This document shows, in pieces, positions 1 to 9,700 of a stretch of DNA of 64,000 nt (position 1 is the stretch's first letter; each line of letters starts with the position of its first letter). Location: positions 2,400,001 to 2,464,000 of the forward strand of contig OZ243927.1 of NCBI GenBank assembly GCA_965213925.1, in the 5' to 3' direction. The DNA comes from Trueperaceae bacterium. Its GTDB lineage: Bacteria > Deinococcota > Deinococci > Deinococcales > Trueperaceae. Below the pieces are notes generated by a model. It searched no databases. It was not told the DNA's origin and saw only the letters and a program-made list of their open reading frames with translations. The translations under genes were made by a program, and so were the position numbers.

Positions 1-622
<622 letters not shown>

Positions 623-663
623 TGGTAAACCAAAGCTCTTATTATGATGTTACGATTAGCAAG

Positions 664-1305
664 ATGAGTTTGGAAACACAAAAATACTTGAGGATATTCG
701 TGCCTGGGGTTCTAATTTTACTTTTAGGAACTCCTCTTTTTTTAGAAAGCTTCGGTATAACCGATGTAAAATCCTTCCTTAGTTTTGAAAACGCTCTACT
801 AGTTCCGTTAGCAGTTGTTTTGGGCGTCTTTTACCACGTTTCTAGTGTAAGAAGCTTCGTTAAACAGATATTTACTCAAAAGACAGATAAGAAAATAGTT
901 GATAGATTGCTCTCAGTATCTGACGAATCTATTGAAGTAAGAAACGTAGCAAAATGGTGTAACGGTAAAACTGCTAACAGTATTTTTTACAATATCGTTG
1001 ATAATGACTCAAGTCTTTCGGAAAAGGTCAAGATAATACGTTTCAACGGAGTAATATGGACTTCATTTATTGACGCATCTACAATATGCTTCCTTTTCTC
1101 AGGTGTCTATCTAGGAAGCTATCAATTTGTCGAACGGTCTCACTTTATCACTCTTGCATTAGTGCTTTGGATAGCGAGCATCGTTTGCTTTCTTCTAATT
1201 TTCCCTACAGTCAATCGACATTTAGAGCTACAAGATGAGCAGATTGACGCCCTAATCGCAAATAAAAAGTCTGAGCTACTATCCAAGCTTCACGAGAACT
1301 TATGA
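664..1305 (+). CDS. Hypothetical 4-TM membrane protein (low GC)
   Basis: Two N-terminal and two C-terminal hydrophobic segments around a soluble loop; ATG 664 preferred because GTG 583 overlaps the pyr promoter. Confidence 0.75.
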   Translation: MSLETQKYLRIFVPGVLILLLGTPLFLESFGITDVKSFLSFENALLVPLAVVLGVFYHVSSVRSFVKQIFTQKTDKKIVDRLLSVSDESIEVRNVAKWCNGKTANSIFYNIVDNDSSLSEKVKIIRFNGVIWTSFIDASTICFLFSGVYLGSYQFVERSHFITLALVLWIASIVCFLLIFPTVNRHLELQDEQIDALIANKKSELLSKLHENL

Positions 1306-1327
1306 AGAAAAATAGCCTCTACACACT

Positions 1328-2368
1328 GTGATTTATGCTCTTCATGAAAAAACTATTCTTTTGATTCAAAAAGAGTATGTTGGCTCTTCTAACCCTTGGT
1401 ATTTAGGGTTCAGTGGAGGTAAAGATTCTTCTGCGCTGCTAAAGCTCGTTTTCACTGCTCTGCGAGAATTACCGGAAGTCTATAAACCGATAACCCTTAT
1501 CTACGTAGATACAGGCGTAGAAATCCCGCTTATTCGTGACCTTGTTATTGAAACTGTAAATGGCGTTCTGGAAGAGTCTGCGACTCATAATATTCCTGTG
1601 AAAGTAGAAATCGCAACACCAAAGCTTGAAGACCGCTTTTTCGTCAAGGTCATAGGAAGAGGTTATCCGCCTCCGACTAATAAATTTAGGTGGTGTACGG
1701 ATAGGCTACGTATTAACCCTGTTAAGAGAGTTTTAGATTCGGTCAAGGAAAAGCAAAGTCTTATACTGCTGGGCATAAGACACGGCGAAAGTAAGGAGCG
1801 AGACAGGACAATAGAGCGCCACAAGCAAGACAAAGAGTTTTATTTTCGGCAGGCGAACAACCGAAATACGCTTATATTCAGCCCTATTGTTGAGTATAGT
1901 ACGAAAGATATCTGGACAACGCTTGCACTTCTTACTGAGCCTGTTAGCTTAAATGCTATACGCTTGTTTGAACTTTATACAGAGGCTAGTGGTGAGTGTC
2001 CGACAGTTCGTGATCCGAAAGGTACTCCATGCGGAAAAGGAAGATTCGGGTGCTGGACGTGTACGGTAGTGCGAAAAGACCGTGCAGTTACGAGTATGGT
2101 GAAAGAGGGGCATCATAGCCTAGCCCCTTTGCTCGAATTTCGAAATTGGCTAGCCGAAATTAGAGATTTGCCTCAGTACCGATGTAAGGTGCGGCGTAAT
2201 GGACAACGCGGTCTAGGTCCGCTGACCCTCGCTGCTAGAAAAGAGACTCTTGCTAAACTACTTCACGCACAAATCGTTAGCCGCTACAAGCTAATAGATG
2301 GGGAAGAACTTTTGCTAATCGAAGAGCTTTGGAAGAAAGATGTAAACTCGACATCTTATCGTGAGTAA
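1328..2368 (+). CDS. DndC-like PAPS-reductase-family (PP-loop, Fe-S) protein
   Basis: FSGGKDS, VDTGVE, GRGYPPP..FRWCTDRLRINP, ECP..PCG..RFGCWTCT; the original start may be ATG 1302 with a 1-nt deletion. Confidence 0.85.
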   Translation: MIYALHEKTILLIQKEYVGSSNPWYLGFSGGKDSSALLKLVFTALRELPEVYKPITLIYVDTGVEIPLIRDLVIETVNGVLEESATHNIPVKVEIATPKLEDRFFVKVIGRGYPPPTNKFRWCTDRLRINPVKRVLDSVKEKQSLILLGIRHGESKERDRTIERHKQDKEFYFRQANNRNTLIFSPIVEYSTKDIWTTLALLTEPVSLNAIRLFELYTEASGECPTVRDPKGTPCGKGRFGCWTCTVVRKDRAVTSMVKEGHHSLAPLLEFRNWLAEIRDLPQYRCKVRRNGQRGLGPLTLAARKETLAKLLHAQIVSRYKLIDGEELLLIEELWKKDVNSTSYRE

Positions 2369-2378
2369 TGCGAAAAGT

Positions 2379-2687
2379 ATGATTGCGCTTCTCAACCAAA
2401 ACCGCCCCGCCCTCGAGCACCTCTGCCGCCAATTCTTCGTAGAGCGCCTAGAGGTTTTCGGCTCTGCCACAACGACCTCTTTTGACCTCGAGCACAGCGA
2501 CCTAGACTTTTTGGTGCGCTTTCAGCAGCCTGCCCCCATAAACCTCTCCGACCAGTATTTCGGACTCGCAGAAGGATTAGAGGCGCTCTTTGGTCGTAAG
2601 ATTGACTTAGTGATGGAGGGGGCGCTTAAAAATCCTTACTTTATCGAGAGCGTGAATGAGACGAGAGAACTACTCTATGCAGCGTAG
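2379..2687 (+). CDS. Minimal nucleotidyltransferase (MntA-type antitoxin)
   Basis: VFGS....SDLDFLV and GRKIDLV motifs; alternative start GTG 2361. Confidence 0.9.
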   Translation: MIALLNQNRPALEHLCRQFFVERLEVFGSATTTSFDLEHSDLDFLVRFQQPAPINLSDQYFGLAEGLEALFGRKIDLVMEGALKNPYFIESVNETRELLYAA

Positions 2688-3076
2688 AACGCTCAAAATG
2701 TTAGAGGACATCAGAGATGCGGCGGCGTTTATTCTTGAGCAAACGAGGAATGTGTCCCTAACGGACTTATAGACAAGACCGCCTTTTGCGTCAAGCTGTC
2801 GAGCGTAACTTTGAAATCATCGGTGAGGCGATTCGCCGTTTGCGAGACCATGACCCCAAGGTGGCGAACAAAATAGGCGAATCGGGGCGTATCATCTCAT
2901 TTCGCAACACGCTTATTCACGGCTACGATTTGATAGATGACGCTCTGGTGTGGGATGTGGTGGAGAATAAACTTCCTGTACTACTTCATGAGGTCGAAGC
3001 GTTGATGCAAAGTTAAGAGACTAACGTTTTGAAGTTGTCACCGCGCTTCTCAACCAGAACTGCCCCGCCCTCGAGC
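2385..3076 (+). repeat. 34-bp direct repeat flanking the MNT-HEPN module (2385-2418 and 3043-3076)
   Basis: gcgcttctcaacca(a/g)aac(c/t)gccccgccctcgagc, 2 mismatches. Confidence 0.85.
2677..3016 (+). pseudogene. HEPN/DUF86 (HepT-type) RNase toxin, +1 frameshift near 2767
   Basis: ATG 2677 MQRRTLKMLEDIRDA...TD, then an extra T; removing it gives YRQDRLLRQAVERNFEIIGEA...FRNTLIHGY (RxxxxH). Confidence 0.85.
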
Positions 3077-3767
3077 CTCATTCTACAAAGCCAGCCAAGT
3101 ACATCCGTAGAAACCAGATAGACTGAACCTCATGAGGTTTACCGAAGCAGAACTTCGCGCAGCAGGGCTGTCAGAAGAGGAAATCGGGGCTATAAAAAGG
3201 CAGCATCTAGGCGGCACATCTGGCGGTGAAGGGCTTCGCTACGAAGAGGAATACGCGGTTTATCGGCTCATCACTGCTATGTTTGACTATATTGAGCAAG
3301 GCAGAGATTTTGGCGTTCTTCTTCAGGATATGTGTCCGGTTGATGACGTAGTGATTGACGCGGAGACTCGAGAATACTGCCAACTCAAGACGGGAGCTGC
3401 GGAAACGTGGGGCGCGAACTCCAGCAAATTAGAGAGGCAATTCAAGCTGCAAAAGAGGCTTTGCGAGGCTAGAGGTGACTCAGCATTTCTACTAAGGTTG
3501 GTCACGCCGCATGAGGAGCGCTACAAGAGCTTCAACGAAAACTTGCCCGCAGAGCTTAAACGCTGCACGGAAATAACGCTTTTTAGGCAGTTGGGGGGGC
3601 GCAGGGAGATGTGGTCCGAAACGAGTCCTTGCTACGAAGAACTCCGCGAACTCTGCGCGTATGAACCGGACAGCCCTTCGCACCGAGAGGTCGTCGTGGC
3701 GCTTTTCTATGACCGGCTTCAAGCAACGTCGCCCGGCGAATGGTATCTGAGCGCGATTTCTGACTAT

Positions 3768-3997
3768 TACACTGTCAACTAAGTATTGCTACCTCTTGTA
3801 TGTCACCCTGAGCCGAAGGCGTAAGGGTCTCGTTTGGTTACTGCCAAAACTTTGTAACTCGCATCTCGGCTGGTTGGGAATGAAAGACGAGATTCTTTCA
3901 TCGTTCATCCCCGAAAGGGGGCTCCACGGAGCCTGTCCTGAGCTTGCCGAAGGGTTGCGTTCAAAATGACATCACTCATTTTTTACTTGACGGTGTA
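3768..3997. mobile_element. MITE family A (230 bp)
   Basis: TIR tacactgtcaactaa / ttacttgacggtgta, CTAT on both sides, internal REP-like palindromes (tgtcaccctgagc...aaaatgaca; cctgtcctgagcttgccgaagg). Confidence 0.85.
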
Positions 3998-4145
3998 CTA
4001 TCTCAAAAGCAATGAAGATTTAGCCTTCGCTGTTCCGATGGTACTTAGCGACGTTGAGCCTCCGCCTCGGTGGGAAGAAGCCGTCGCAACTGCTGAGCGC
4101 ATTTCGGGCTTGACGCTACACATCAATGGTGATTTCTGCTACTAT

Positions 4146-4256
4146 TAGCAGGTATCATCTGGTTTGAGACACTCTCACTCTAAAAAACAGCGTCTAGCAC
4201 ACACGTTATGAGATGATACCTGCGGCATTCTCTCTCAGTATGTTGCGGAACTGCTA
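4146..4256. mobile_element. MITE family B (111 bp)
   Basis: TAGCAG...CTGCTA ends, CTAT on both sides, internal IR gcaggtatcatct/agatgatacctgc; homolog at 49180. Confidence 0.85.
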
Positions 4257-4394
4257 CTATAGTTACATTTACAATTCGGGCGCTTTTGATAGCGGAGCCA
4301 TCGGAAGAGTAGGGAGTGACAGGCTTCACAGGTTTTTGGACAGAATCGTGAATACTAAACCTGGTGTTATAGATGAGTTTTGGGAGCAACTGCT

Positions 4395-4921
4395 ATGAAC
4401 AGAACTATATCTGAGATGGTCACACCTAGAGCGGAAGATAGCCTCAACGAACTCTTGAACGCCAAGGGCGACGTACCCCACTATCAAAAAGCGATGACAG
4501 CGCTCGGTCAGGAGTTGGGGAGGCACATCTCGAGCCAACTCTTAGAAACCTCTTCTGTTTGTTTAGTATTCACCGTAGAAGATGCCGACTTCTTGGCGCG
4601 TGGTCTCTTAAAAAGCATCTCAGGAGTAGTTGACGCGGATAATATTCATGTTGTTTGCTTTTGGAACAAGCGTGAGCAATTGGGCGGCGTGAGCGTCGCT
4701 CCTATCATTCGCCGCTACATCGAGCCCTTTGACAAGGTGGACGCCGTCATCGTGCTCAAGTCAATCATCTCGAGTTCATGCGTTGTCAGAACGAATCTGA
4801 TGGAGATATTAAGCAAAGCGGAGCCAGAAAGGGTCTTCGTTACGGCTCCAGTTATGTTTGTAGGTTCTACTAAAATGTTGGAGCAAGAGTTTTCGGCGGA
4901 TATCGCTTCGAAGTTTGAGTA
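4395..4921 (+). pseudogene. UPRTase-like phosphoribosyltransferase-fold protein, N-terminal part
   Basis: ATG overlaps the nuclease TGA; TVEDADFLA, VCFWN, KSIISSSCVV, APVM; cut by IS982 after KFE. Confidence 0.75.
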
Positions 4922-5913
4922 ACCTAAGTTCGGAGTTTCCAAATAGCATAAGCATCTCCTAGAATGAGGGTGTTGAAGGCTCAAAAAAGGAGATGCTTAG
5001 GATGAGTTTACTAGAATTGTTCTGCGAGGTGGATGACTTCTGCAGAGGCTTCGCGCTCTGGGCACATAAACAGCAGCTTGCTGAGAGTAGAAAGCGTGGT
5101 CCTAAGTGCCGCTTGAGCGTAAGCGAAGTGATGACGATCATGATTCACTTTCACAGTTCAGGCTACCGAGACTTCAAGAGCCACTACCAGAAACACGTGT
5201 GCAAGCAGCTTAAAGGTGAGTTTCCAGCACTGGTATCGTACTCGCGCTTTGTAGAACTGACCTCAGAGGTTTTGCTGCCGCTTTGCGCCTATCTGCGAGC
5301 GAGTATAGGTGAAGTAACAGGTATCAGCTTTGTAGATAGCACGCATGTGGCAGTGCGCCACAACAAACGTATTGAACGCAACAAGGTCTTTGCAGGCTTA
5401 GCAGCGCGTGGCTGTACCGGCATGGGTTGGTTCTATGGTTTCGAGCTGCATCTCATCATCAACGATAAGGGTGAACTGCTCGCCGTCTATCTAACGCCTG
5501 GCGATACGGATGATCGCAAGCCGCTCGGTGTACTTACGCAAAACCTGTTCGGTAAGCTTTTCGGTGACAAGGGTTATCTCTCACAAGACCTCTTCGAAAA
5601 GTTCTTTGAGCAAGGCATAGAACTCATCACGACCATCCGCAAGAACATGAAAAGCGCGCTGAAGCTTGAGGACAAGATTCTCCTGCGCAAGCGGTTCATC
5701 ACCGTTCGTCCAGCTTGACTGGATCGAAACGGTGAACGATCAGCTCAAGAATATCTCGCAGATTGAGCACACCAGACACCGAAAGCCTGCTAACTTTGCT
5801 GTCAATCTCATCGCTGGACTCATCGCCTATCAGCACCAGCCCAAGAAGCCTTCGCTGAATCTGGGAGCTGACATTGACCCTCTCCCTGTCCTGATTTGAC
5901 TTCGAACTTAGGT
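4922..5913 (+). mobile_element. IS982-family element, copy 1
   Basis: TIR ACCTAAGTTCG / CGAACTTAGGT; near-identical to 31682-32673. Confidence 0.92.
4993..5899 (+). pseudogene. IS982 transposase with a 22-nt frameshifting insertion (5701-5722)
   Basis: FVDST, GWFYGFELH, GDKGY motifs; [14 protein letters not shown] split into two frames. Confidence 0.85.
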
Positions 5914-5937: not shown

Positions 5938-6820
5938 ACGCCAATTCGGAAAAGATTTGACAGCGGGAGAAGTGAGGGTTGCAATGATGTATGCGCAAAA
6001 TCCCAACCCTCGAAGAGATTATACAAGCCGTCGAACGTTTACCCCTCAAGAAGCGTAGAAAAGCCCCTCAAGGACGTGCTCCTGTTTTTCCAGACTCGTT
6101 CATCATCGCCTTAGCGGTCTATCAGAAGCTGTCGAGTTTTCGCTATAGCCGGAAGATGCTTGAAGTTGCTGCATCGTTCGGCGTGGACGTACCTGTACCC
6201 TCAACGTTTTGTGAGCGTAAGCGCCTCCTGATAGGACAGATTATTCTCGCGGTTAAACAGCTTTGCACCGGGCATAACACGACGAAACAGCACCTCGACT
6301 CGAAGAAACTAGAAGTAGTAGATTTTGCCCGTGCTAAAAGGACCAAGCTTGCGGGCAGTTATGGGCGTGACCACGTCCATAACACCACCTTCTATGGCTT
6401 TCGGCTTCATGCGCGTGTGGACGATACAGGCAGACTCTGTGAGGTACTGCTGCGAGGCGCGAACGAACATGATGTTAAGGTCGCGCCTCGCCTACTAGAC
6501 AAACTCACTTACGCCATTGTAACCGCCGATAAAGGCTATATCAGCTCCGAGCTTAAAGCCGACGTTGCCTCCCAAGCGGTTGACCTTATAACCCCGCGCC
6601 GCAGCAACCAGCTACCCCCGCCCAAGCGTGAGCAGAGGCTTTACCAAGGACACCGCATCGTTGAGTCGGTCTTCTCGTCCTTGGATAGACTTGGACTCTC
6701 TGACAGACCCTACCGCTCGACGGTGGGCTGCATCCTGCACGTTTACACCACCTTGCTCGCTTACCAACTCAGCCGTTTAGGGGCATTTGAGCTTTGAATT
6801 TCCCTTTTCCGAATTGGGGT
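5938..6820 (+). mobile_element. Second, distinct IS982-like element
   Basis: 17-bp TIR ac(g/c)ccaattcggaaaag; 6-bp TSD TTACTT (5932-5937, 6821-6826). Confidence 0.9.
5991..6797 (+). CDS. DDE transposase (IS982-like), apparently intact
   Basis: HLDS, FYGFRLH, ANEHD, ADKGY, RIVESVFS. Confidence 0.88.
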   Translation: MRKIPTLEEIIQAVERLPLKKRRKAPQGRAPVFPDSFIIALAVYQKLSSFRYSRKMLEVAASFGVDVPVPSTFCERKRLLIGQIILAVKQLCTGHNTTKQHLDSKKLEVVDFARAKRTKLAGSYGRDHVHNTTFYGFRLHARVDDTGRLCEVLLRGANEHDVKVAPRLLDKLTYAIVTADKGYISSELKADVASQAVDLITPRRSNQLPPPKREQRLYQGHRIVESVFSSLDRLGLSDRPYRSTVGCILHVYTTLLAYQLSRLGAFEL

Positions 6821-7207: not shown

Positions 7208-7393
7208 TCACTTAGGCTTGTTGTCCGTTTCTTTAGGCTTATTGCCCCGGCGAAACATGTAGAACGTCGCGCCTACGCCCCCTAGCAAGCTGAGCCCCAA
7301 GCTCCAGAAAAGGGGCGTGCCGAAAGCGAGAAGGCCGATAAAGAGGAGCGCCGTTGCGCCGATTCCCCAAAGCATCGCGTCTTCAAAATCCAT
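7208..7393 (-). CDS. Small 2-TM membrane protein
   Basis: Two hydrophobic segments and a basic tail. Confidence 0.6.
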   Translation of the reverse strand: MDFEDAMLWGIGATALLFIGLLAFGTPLFWSLGLSLLGGVGATFYMFRRGNKPKETDNKPK

Positions 7394-7600
7394 AGTTCCA
7401 TGCTGCTAGGAAAAGAGAGGCGTTGCAAGTGAAGGTACTACATTTATGAAGACATAGTTTATGAAGACATACGGACCCCACTTCACTCCCTATCACTGAG
7501 AGAAGGCCTCGACGACGTAATTCGATTTTGCAAGACGGCGAGTAACCGAGCACGCTACAAGATATTGACATTCCTGTGTTAAGAAGCTCACTATAGGGGT

Positions 7601-8392
7601 ATGAATCAGCGTCAGATTGACCTTGCCCTGCTCGCCGGAATCGGCGTTCTGCTCGTCGCCATCCTCGTGCTCGCCTTGAGCGCCGCGCCTATGCGGGGCG
7701 GCTCGGCGGAAGACCCGCCTAACGCGGAGCAGACATCGAACGACGCCGCGAATCCTTCTGGAAATCCGGCGGAAAACCAAGCGGAGCAAGGGGAAGCCGC
7801 GCAGAATCAGCCCTCGGAAGAGGTGAGCGCCGTGGACGTGACGCCCGAGGAAACGAGCGCCGCTGAGGGTGTGTCCGTAGAGAACGCGGAGGACGACGCG
7901 GCGCAAACGGCTGAAGGCGACGCTGCCGAGAGCGCCGCACCCTCGGAGGGAGAAGGAGGGGGCGAAGCGGACGCCGAGGGTGCGTCAGATGCAGAGGCGA
8001 ATACCGCGGATACTGAGGCGGGCACGGAGGGCGCGCAAGCGGGCGAAGAGGCGGCGGCTCCCGTAGAGGGGGCGCAAGCTACCCCGACTGGAGCGGTCAA
8101 CTTGAGCCGCGTCGGTTTCGCGTTCATCACCGCCGAGTCGGGCGCGTGCAGCATCCCCTTACAGCCCTGGCGTCAGGTCGCAGTGAGCCGCGACCTCTTG
8201 GCACAGTACGGCTGCGGCGCGACGGTCACGCTCGACTTAGCTGACACCGTCAACGGCACACAGCAAGTTACCGCGCAGATCGCCGACACGATGAACCCGA
8301 GTTTCGAACGCACCGTGAATATCTTTGTTGGGGAGGAGGAGCCGGCGCTCGAGTACGGCATCACTACCGGCACCCTGCAAGGTGGGCCATAA
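7601..8392 (+). CDS. Membrane-anchored protein with acidic linker and C-terminal 3D/DPBB-like domain
   Basis: N-terminal TM; QVAVSRDLL...IADTMNP...TVNIF. Confidence 0.7.
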   Translation: MNQRQIDLALLAGIGVLLVAILVLALSAAPMRGGSAEDPPNAEQTSNDAANPSGNPAENQAEQGEAAQNQPSEEVSAVDVTPEETSAAEGVSVENAEDDAAQTAEGDAAESAAPSEGEGGGEADAEGASDAEANTADTEAGTEGAQAGEEAAAPVEGAQATPTGAVNLSRVGFAFITAESGACSIPLQPWRQVAVSRDLLAQYGCGATVTLDLADTVNGTQQVTAQIADTMNPSFERTVNIFVGEEEPALEYGITTGTLQGGP

Positions 8393-8498
8393 GTTGAACC
8401 TCCACGTGTTTATGTACGAGTAGCTTTACGAAAGTTGAGAGGACTGAGGTAAAAGTTTTCTCTTAGTCCTCAGTCCTTTCCTCTTGTATTCTGTTCCT

Positions 8499-8828
8499 AT
8501 GCGCCGCTTCACCGCTCAAGGAACCAACACGGGCTTCGCCTGCGTCCACTGCGGCCGCGACGTGCCGCCCCTCGCGAACGGCTCGTACCGCAACCACTGC
8601 CCGCACTGCCTCTACTCGCTTCACGTCGACGTTTTCCCCGGCGACAGGGCGAGCGACTGCGGCGGCGTGTTGGAGCCCGTGAGCGTGGATTACAGCGGCA
8701 AAAAAGGCTGGGTCATCGTTCACCACTGCCAGACGTGCGGCGAGGTGCGGCGCAACAAAGCCGCGCTCGGTGACGCGGCAATGCCCGACGATTACGACGT
8801 GATTTTGGAGCTTAGTCAGCGAGCTTAG
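8499..8828 (+). CDS. RNHCP domain protein
   Basis: CxxC, YRNHCPHCLYSLHVD.PGDR. Confidence 0.9.
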   Translation: MRRFTAQGTNTGFACVHCGRDVPPLANGSYRNHCPHCLYSLHVDVFPGDRASDCGGVLEPVSVDYSGKKGWVIVHHCQTCGEVRRNKAALGDAAMPDDYDVILELSQRA

Positions 8829-8908
8829 CGAGGTACACAGACGAGGTATCTGAACGGCGTGGTTTTAAGCTGGTACCTAATCGCTCGCCCCTTTCGAAAG
8901 GACCCCTT

Positions 8909-9700
8909 ATGGCTTACGCACCGCCGGACGTCGAGACGCTCGAGCTGACCCACCAAGACGCCGCCCTGCGAATCACCCTCAACCGCCCCGACGTGCTCAA
9001 CGCCCTCTCGCTAGACCTCTTAGGTGAACTGCGAGACGCGCTGCAAGAGGCGGCGGCGGCGGACGACGTTCGCGCCGTTCTCTTGACGGGCGCAGGGCGC
9101 GGCTTCTCGGCGGGCGCGGACCTCGCCTCGACGCCCGTAGACGGAAACTTCGAAGACCTCATCGAAACTTACTACAACCCCGTCGTTCGGGCTATCGCGA
9201 CGATGCCTAAGCCCGTTATCGCGGGCGTCAACGGCGTGGCGGCGGGCGCGGGAATGTCTTTAGCGCTCGCATGTGACACGCGCTTACTTTCATCCGCGGC
9301 CGCCTTCGCCGTCGGGTTCACGGGCATCGGCTTGGTCATGGACGCCTCGGCGAGCTACTTTTTGCCGCGCCTAGTCGGCCGGGGACGCGCCTTCGAACTG
9401 ACCTACACCGGGCGAAAGGTGGGAGCAGAGGAGGCGCTAAATCTAGGCTTAGCCGAGCAAATCGTTCCGGCTGAGGACTTCGCGGAGACCGCCTGGGCGC
9501 TGACCCGGCGTTTGGCGCAGGGACCCACCAAGGCGTTCGCGCTGGTCAAAGAGGAGATCAACGCCTCGGCGCATCACGACTTAGAGGCGCAGCTCGGGCT
9601 CGAGGCGAAACTCCAAGAAGTCGCCTCGAACACCGCCGACGTGCGCGAAGGGGTCGCCGCGTTTAGAGAGAAACGCGCGCCGAACTTCAAGGGTGAATAG
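8909..9700 (+). CDS. Enoyl-CoA hydratase/isomerase (PaaG-like)
   Basis: GRGFSAGADL, NGVAAGAG, EGVAAFREKR. Confidence 0.88.
   Translation: MAYAPPDVETLELTHQDAALRITLNRPDVLNALSLDLLGELRDALQEAAAADDVRAVLLTGAGRGFSAGADLASTPVDGNFEDLIETYYNPVVRAIATMPKPVIAGVNGVAAGAGMSLALACDTRLLSSAAAFAVGFTGIGLVMDASASYFLPRLVGRGRAFELTYTGRKVGAEEALNLGLAEQIVPAEDFAETAWALTRRLAQGPTKAFALVKEEINASAHHDLEAQLGLEAKLQEVASNTADVREGVAAFREKRAPNFKGE

Follow-up and report, generated by a model that had tools for sequence, protein, structure and literature searches.

A membrane protein paired with a DndC-like enzyme in a candidate two-gene conflict module from a Trueperaceae bacterium

SspD and BrxP serve defense-linked DNA phosphorothioation and, to our knowledge, DndC-type chemistry has so far been known only within multi-protein machines that scan DNA (Dnd, Ssp, and BREX type 4). 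Here we describe a pair of genes from a 64,000-nucleotide (nt) stretch of a Trueperaceae bacterium (GenBank assembly GCA_965213925.1, contig OZ243927.1, positions 2,400,001 to 2,464,000), hereafter the window. The first gene encodes a predicted membrane protein with four transmembrane (TM) segments, which we call the partner, and the second a DndC-like enzyme; together they form a conserved, self-contained two-gene unit present in several bacterial phyla. A full-text literature search, supplements excluded, found no earlier account of a DndC-like enzyme that has a membrane protein as its partner, and the pair is not described in the available text, without supplements, of PMC10853773, PMC8569181, PMC12839542, or bioRxiv 10.64898/2026.04.06.716658.

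A preliminary description, made from the letters of the window, had reported an AT-rich unit of two genes, a four-TM open reading frame (ORF) and a protein of 346 amino acids (aa) with DndC signatures, with no dnd or ssp partners beside it. Both statements held when the ORFs, the guanine-plus-cytosine (GC) content, and scans with Pfam, PADLOC, and NCBIfam were compared. An enzyme-based survey, with one genome per species, gave 80 DndC-related loci, nine of which carry the partner, and these are exactly the nine closest relatives of the window enzyme (41 to 55% identity). The ORF of ca. 212 aa that overlaps the enzyme start in these nine loci aligns with the window membrane protein, and a partner profile matches all nine and none of the other 71. 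The reverse survey, with the partner alone, returned 38 loci (35 from metagenomes, one from a viral collection, and two from Bacteroidota genomes), including four near-identical pairs of loci. The Bacteroidota sampling covered 401 genomes, among which the two new partner genomes add to the seed genome, so that about 3 of 401 carry the pair. Where at least 300 nt of room followed the partner, a same-strand DndC-like ORF lay directly downstream in 31 of 32 loci, at a distance of −92 to +10 nt in 28 of the 31; in the sole exception, the membrane gene is reduced to a remnant of 91 aa. Partner and enzyme diverge in step (Mantel r 0.79 across 33 pairs; none of 2,000 permutations reached this value), and there was no conserved third gene among 251 neighbor ORFs of 43 loci, which gave just three clusters of two loci each.

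The start of the partner gene at ATG 664 fits the N-termini of its homologues (MSLETQKYLR against MEQ-TLK-LR), and a longer reading from GTG 583 does not. Family-averaged hydropathy gave four membrane segments, and counts of lysine and arginine put the N-terminus, the loop/helical domain at residues 62 to 129 (11.4 K+R per sequence), and the C-terminal helix in the cytoplasm. The alignment-based AlphaFold2 model is all-helical, with a predicted local distance difference test score (pLDDT) of 93.4 and a predicted template modeling score (pTM) of 0.88. Invariant or near-invariant residues (Arg10, Pro14, Tyr57, Asn77, Phe108, Tyr109, Asp113, Ser117, Leu118, Asn128, Gly129, Asp137, and Gln193) were placed at or near the cytoplasmic face, with Asp137 within TM3; polar residues in this position would suit a site for docking or ligand binding no less well than a pore. 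Retrieval of the family needed an exhaustive profile search, a word-based search with the partner having returned itself alone and a 10-sequence profile only 8 proteins. The exhaustive search found 481 representative clusters at 50% identity, 428 of them at E ≤ 1e-10, with lengths near 200 to 235 aa and a few up to 268 among the matches listed. The partner matched no Pfam, NCBIfam, PADLOC, or protein-atlas family, 80 members scanned singly gave only scattered noise-level matches, and we regard the partner as a real, unnamed, and previously undescribed family of membrane proteins. Foldseek with the partner model against the PDB gave no row at E ≤ 0.001; the top rows, none of them significant, were MotA, PomA, and ExbB (E 0.3 to 2, TM-scores 0.2 to 0.3), with 6ysl_C at E 0.31. 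None of the 80 members had a MotA_ExbB Pfam domain, and the loci had no conserved third gene, such as one for a MotB/ExbD-type protein. A wide fold search reached a top Z of 6.8, which is in the range common for helical models.

The enzyme matched the PADLOC DndC model with E 3.5e-92 over profile positions 15 to 375 of 481 and Pfam PAPS_reduct with 6.2e-12 (46.3 bits, threshold 22.5). Against TIGR03183 it reached 282.7 bits (5.3e-84), under the cut-off of 290.4, in a match that stops at model position 352 of 447. The motifs SGGKDS (residues 29 to 34), RWCT, and C..CG..RFGCWTC are all present and conserved. SGGKDS is invariant among the partnered enzymes, i.e., those encoded beside the partner, and its conservation in 71 canonical DndCs is at least 90%; for Cys123, 224, 235, 242, and 245 the figure is 100% in either group. 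The conservation common to the two groups extends through many residues to position 335, including an Arg-rich region at 272 to 297, and the enzyme retains the whole DndC catalytic set of a PP-loop and five cysteines. Its AlphaFold2 model (pLDDT 86.5) matched CysH, adenosine phosphosulfate (APS) reductases, the iron-sulfur (Fe-S) tRNA thiolases NcsA and TtuA, and the PP-loop domains of GMP synthetase over ca. 205 to 215 N-terminal residues; a sequence search of the PDB yielded only PAPS-like domains of FAD synthase and no DndC structure. The window genome also has a distinct CysH-like gene of 217 aa, which scored 112.4 bits in the CysH comparison, and the enzyme matches DndC models far better. 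Relatives of the enzyme number thousands, the best 120 of which are all 323 to 378 aa long at 51 to 64% identity. By their source names, automatic pipelines label these enzymes “DNA sulfur modification protein DndC,” a label likely to mislead any scoring of genomes for phosphorothioation.

A phylogeny against DndC, which the preliminary description had proposed, set the partnered enzymes apart as a clade of their own. In this quick tree (IQ-TREE, LG+G4, 81 proteins, midpoint root only, long branches flagged) all 10 of 10 partnered enzymes fell on one side of a branch with a value of 100 in the Shimodaira-Hasegawa-like approximate likelihood ratio test (SH-aLRT), with long branches to the other 71, and we take them to be a separate sister clade of DndC. 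Six partnered members scored 233.7 to 283.6 bits against TIGR03183, all under the 290.4 cut-off, and two canonical examples 366.6 and 567.8 bits. The neighborhoods differ as well: in a profile search of loci with enough room, a DndD/PbeC-like ORF lay just downstream of 53 of 56 long canonical DndCs and 8 of 8 short canonical ones, compared to 0 of 6 partnered enzymes. Length, on the other hand, does not separate the clade. The preliminary description had counted it as a distinction that DndC is usually longer, but this feature is not diagnostic: nine DndCs of 376 to 409 aa (from Alphaproteobacteria, Burkholderiales, and others) lie in genuine dnd/pbe operons, together with DndA and PbeC/DndD. 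On the same ground, a short enzyme was rejected as a sign of novelty. In two of the three such operons tested, an ORF of ca. 70 aa after the short DndC matches TIGR03183 positions 385 to 445, so the C-terminal module of these operons is apparently split off rather than lost. Such split module ORFs stand between DndC and DndD at L045 (11070-11282) and L068 (11061-11276). The partnered clade has no DndC C-terminal module (ca. 385 to 447), either fused or as a conserved small ORF after the gene.

The window pair also stands alone within its genome. The assembly around the window (4.75 Mb, 96.9% complete) gave no DndD, DndE, or DndB match, although the DndD and DndE models did find matches in other genomes, and the search for dndD and dndE named in the preliminary description leaves the window pair without these Dnd partners. 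A gene for an IscS-like desulfurase is present. The window genome had no match to DUF4007 (SspB) either, a weak blank because that model rang in no control genome, and SspC was not searched for. Of the five other pair-bearing genomes, three lack DndD, one (G065) has a full canonical dnd cluster elsewhere, and in the remaining one (G062) the only part of DndC beside DndD and DndE is an ORF of 71 aa for its C-terminal module (G062:C3:2035604-2035774), with no other catalytic DndC in the genome; DndD was above the cut-off in only one of the five.

Distribution and composition indicate that the pair is horizontally mobile. The partner gene was found in 0 of 60 relatives of the window bacterium (2 of the same genus, 34 of the same family, and 24 of the same order), and the two same-genus genomes match the window only at 3-599 and 7235-9000, in unlinked places. 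Sequencing runs X3 and X4, labeled as the same species, contain almost nothing of the stretch, which is no proof of absence. GC content is 0.35 to 0.47 over the pair compared to ca. 0.6 to 0.69 in the flanking genome, and the insert that bears the pair ranges from 0.35 to 0.53 with its minimum over the two genes; its left edge, at ca. 600, is just past the pyrR intergenic region. The contig from the viral collection has a P4-type integrase on one side of the pair and an AlpA/antirepressor block on the other.

The defense-type role favored by the preliminary description is consistent with the genes that flank the pair elsewhere (Table 1). As a control we used twenty arbitrary 12-kb places from six pair-bearing genomes, with ORFs sampled alike. 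PADLOC matches at E ≤ 1e-8 were found for 18 of 109 pair-neighbor ORFs and for 7 of 139 control ORFs; Pfam assigned six of the seven control matches to ABC transporters, a topoisomerase, a tRNA methylase, and an amine oxidase and the last one to a HerA-like ATPase, and integrases and transposases were absent. By our own classification, a defense or mobile-element neighbor was present at 13 of 27 new loci and 2 of 20 control places (Fisher p 0.010). Just upstream of the pair at L117 (4004-5952) and L120 (2349-4678) is an E2/E1(ThiF)-JAB and DUF6527 set, the only recurrent neighbor cluster besides an integrase and probably an independent ubiquitin-like defense system.

In the window, the junction between the two genes differs from that of the family. 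The ORFs overlap or abut in the 28 of 31 loci given above, unlike in the window, where the enzyme frame is open from 1316, its start is GTG 1328, and 22 nt separate it from the partner gene. An ATG at 1302 overlaps the TGA stop of the partner (ATGA) out of the enzyme frame and reads MKKNSLYTL*, ending after nine codons. In the enzyme frame, positions 1316-1327 encode PLHT, which lines up with homologue N-termini such as CLTP-V, and a gain of one base between ca. 1313 and 1316 would yield an N-terminus as long as in the closest Bacteroidota members. The idea in the preliminary description that translational coupling was lost is thus plausible: the window pair may once have had a coupled start, from which present-day impairment does not follow. 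Logan contigs of runs X1 and X2, which come from one sample, span 558-3797 with zero differences and zero indels; the runs listed as containing the stretch include none of RNA.

The pair begins directly after the pyrR-like gene, and the insert continues downstream in the order MntA-like gene, broken HepT, two family-less ORFs, and two DDE transposase genes (Table 1). MntA/HepT, directly downstream of the pair, is a type VII toxin-antitoxin module, and the ORFs at 3132-3782 (216 aa) and 4380-4922 (180 aa) had no Pfam, NCBIfam, or PADLOC match. A 34-nt direct repeat at 2385-2418 and 3043-3076 (94%) shows that a second mntA 5′ end is left after the MntA/HepT unit (2361-3078). Two contigs of run X2 link ca. 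582/584 to 3043/3044, omitting ca. 2.46 kb that correspond exactly to the pair plus the MntA/HepT unit, and this skip finishes at the second copy of the 34-nt repeat; with sides of 26 to 30 letters and the likeness set at 85%, it is only a weak hint of a block-less variant in the same sample. A repeat of ca. 112 bp at 4145-4256 (and about 3765-4000) has dozens of copies in both same-genus genomes at 80 to 90% identity, appears as a depth spike in the sample contigs, and resembles an element of the miniature inverted-repeat transposable element (MITE) or repetitive extragenic palindromic (REP) type. The first DDE_Tnp_1_3 ORF apparently stops short of the full domain, and the transposase ORFs and repeats mark a rearrangement hotspot. 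To the right of the insert, in the high-GC flank, the ORF at 7601-8392 (263 aa) has an N-terminal hydrophobic segment followed by a long acidic low-complexity region rich in Ala, Glu, and Gly.

Table 1. Features of the window (by position) and neighbors of the pair at other loci (by locus)
Feature	Position or locus	Strand	Basis or remark
Membrane-protein gene (213 aa)	664..1305	+	ORF from ATG 664; aligned with upstream ORFs of 9 related loci
DndC-like enzyme gene (346 aa, GTG start)	1328..2368	+	Family scans, homologues, tree, conserved residues, model
Gene junction (partner stop/enzyme start)	1302..1330	+	Sequence, three-frame translation, homologue junctions
Lower-GC insert bearing the pair	600..3800	.	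Composition; same-genus genomes without counterpart
pyrR-like gene	2-475	Opposite to pair	Pair starts directly after it
MntA-like nucleotidyltransferase gene	2361/2379-2687	+	Pfam, PADLOC PDC-S09 (3.2e-35), NCBIfam; neighbor, not part of the pair
Broken HepT gene	2678-2771 plus 2786-3016	+	In-frame stop at ca. 2769-2771, resumes in another frame from 2786
Two DDE_Tnp_1_3 transposase ORFs, side by side	4993-5718 and 5991-6797		E 1.5e-55 and 1.8e-17
Type II restriction-modification systems	L094, L115		Pair neighbors
Shedu SduA with PDC-M11A	L108		Pair neighbors
PDC-S28; PDC-S06	L094; L128		Pair neighbors
E1/E2/JAB-DUF6527 sets	L117, L120		Pair neighbors
dCTP-deaminase-like gene and ParE	L117		Pair neighbors
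SIR2; TIR	L097; L119		Pair neighbors
HNH nucleases	L099, L103		Pair neighbors
Eco57I-type methylase	L121		Pair neighbor
Integrases; transposase	L093, L115, L120, L128; L127		Pair neighbors

We favor, with a probability of roughly 0.45, the reading that the two genes are a conflict module, complete in itself and moving horizontally, whose membrane protein docks or regulates the DndC-type enzyme. A four-helix inner-membrane protein of ca. 212 aa, translationally coupled to a DndC-sister enzyme of ca. 350 aa, would stand in for the DNA-scanning partners DndD/E and would dock or gate the enzyme on the cytoplasmic side of the membrane. The PP-loop would provide ATP pyrophosphatase or adenylation activity and the five cysteines would hold an Fe-S cluster and relay sulfur, which would come from a housekeeping desulfurase of the IscS type. 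The enzyme would then activate a phosphate-bearing target and transfer sulfur to it in the manner of DndC; nucleic acid is the most likely target, and the module would be used in conflicts with phages or other mobile DNA. The substrate could be DNA, because the conservation of residues suggests so, or something else. More tentatively, the pair may be a two-gene system against phages and mobile DNA, in which an enzyme without a DNA-scanning ATPase is tethered by the membrane protein and acts at the inner membrane on incoming DNA or on a non-DNA phosphate (lipid-linked or nucleotide), a version that we consider possible but doubtful.

Several observations weigh against a conflict module. At the nine genome-derived pair loci, flanks are mostly housekeeping genes, and only 1 to 3 of the 9 have defense-like neighbors. 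Permissive PADLOC matches counted by locus were alike in the two sets (12 of 27 and 7 of 20) until the control matches were shown to be generic, and the controls come from isolate genomes and metagenome-assembled genomes (MAGs), whereas most pair loci come from metagenome contigs. Because the classification was our own, the control was not metagenomic, and housekeeping genes flank the pair at the nine genome loci, the association of the pair with defense and mobile elements is real but moderate. A tblastn search with the partner found nothing in phage or plasmid collections, which is weak given a single-sequence query for a family of ca. 30% identity; PADLOC has no model for the pair, and the partner fold has no informative structural relative. 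Finally, the window enzyme has Val60 where 9 of 10 clade members carry Cys, and with this residue, the 22-nt gap and GTG start, and the decaying neighbors, the window copy may be less active than other copies.

Signaling or sensor-type abortive infection, in which the enzyme would detect infection or else produce or alter a small molecule and the four-TM protein would be a membrane-disrupting effector that halts or kills the infected cell, would also explain an enzyme and a membrane protein laid out together in defense-rich surroundings. A weak match of 6 of 80 partner proteins to a holin family (best E 1.9e-4), the ion-conducting stator and ExbB proteins at the top of the non-significant Foldseek rows, which have the same TM2-loop-TM3 topology, and the invariant Asp in TM3 all point this way. 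Both the holin and the MotA/ExbB signals are nevertheless at noise level, as judged from the TM-scores and the absent Pfam domain, and the invariant residues of the partner gather on the cytoplasmic side, as they would in a binding site. Moreover, all residues conserved in the DNA-modifying DndC are retained along the whole enzyme, including 272-297; this favors DndC-like chemistry over a new signaling product, and we consider abortive infection unlikely. To about the same degree we doubt that the pair is an accessory module without a role in defense, thiolating or adenylating a non-DNA target (lipid-linked phosphate, nucleotide, or RNA) at the membrane and carried on mobile DNA for another benefit. 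The housekeeping flanks in most of the nine genome loci would agree with such a role, the PP-loop/Fe-S relatives NcsA and TtuA do thiolate RNA, and the partner, with polar invariant residues at the membrane-cytoplasm interface, resembles a small membrane scaffold or enzyme. On the other side are the enrichment of defense and mobile genes in the flanks, a sporadic, strain-specific distribution, the lack of any conserved linked metabolic gene at the loci, and the fact that the closest enzyme family acts on DNA.

Two further explanations would tie the pair to Dnd systems. The enzyme might serve in trans as the DndC of DndD/DndE cores without one of their own; such cores are many according to the available text of PMC10853773, and G062, with its DndD, DndE, and module ORF, could be such a case. 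This is improbable, however, since four of the six pair-bearing genomes, including that of the window, have no DndD at E ≤ 0.001 above the level of generic ATPases, G065 encodes a canonical DndC beside the DndD/E that it carries, and the pair is linked to DndD/E at 0 of 6 loci. The other explanation, that the enzyme is what deletion left of a dnd operon, with the membrane gene as an unrelated neighbor, could draw on the automatic DndC annotation, on an enzyme shorter than most DndCs, and on the decaying neighborhood in the window (broken HepT, insertion sequence elements). We rejected it as highly improbable on the evidence of pairing, tree, overlap, and DndD neighbors: the pair is conserved across phyla with overlapping frames, the enzymes form a separate monophyletic clade and co-diverge with the partner, and the partner family comprises 481 clusters of constant length. 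The neighborhood comparison named in the preliminary description gave the same answer, as the closest homologues (41 to 64% identity) lie outside dnd operons and keep the TM gene beside them.

What the conflict-module reading implies goes beyond the window. A sister clade of DndC has exchanged the scanning partners for a membrane protein, moves horizontally, and keeps every catalytic residue, which raises the questions of what a lone DndC-like enzyme can do and where in the cell. If the pair is a defense system, it would be a compact two-gene type with unusual enzymology and a new membrane component, and if the inner-membrane reading is true, phosphorothioate-type chemistry would extend to a new target and a new cellular location. 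The interpretation offered in the preliminary description, a genuine self-contained pair with a role in defense, stands as regards the pair, and a role in defense is consistent with the flanks; its argument from length has to be dropped, and the signaling-type abortive-infection mechanism with the membrane protein as effector is not supported.

Among described systems, the best family match of the enzyme is DndC (DptC) of DndABCDE, with which it shares the PP-loop SGGKDS, RWCT, and the five cysteines. It differs by the missing C-terminal module, by the absence of DndA/B/D/E alongside or, in most hosts, anywhere in the genome, and by an obligate four-TM neighbor that is not known from Dnd systems. 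Short split DndCs are similar in length and match the same profile span (ca. 10 to 375 of 481), but they occur with DndA and DndD/PbeC, score above the cut-off (366.6 bits), and are nested in the canonical clade, none of which applies to the enzymes of the pair. SspD and BrxP both belong to the PP-loop PAPS-reductase family, yet the match to SspD is only 1.3e-10 compared to 3.5e-92 for DndC. The match to BrxP of BREX type 4 is only 2.6e-13 and covers the PP-loop part, and PglZ, BrxL, and BrxC were not found among the neighbors in the window or at 36 other loci. According to the available text of PMC12839542, BrxP lacks a cysteine dyad that is unique to DndC, whereas the partnered clade keeps every cysteine column conserved in canonical DndC. 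With regard to two-gene defense systems made of an enzyme and a transmembrane effector, no PADLOC model fits the membrane protein of the pair, but the bicistronic layout, the small multi-pass membrane protein, and the defense-rich or mobile contexts are the same.

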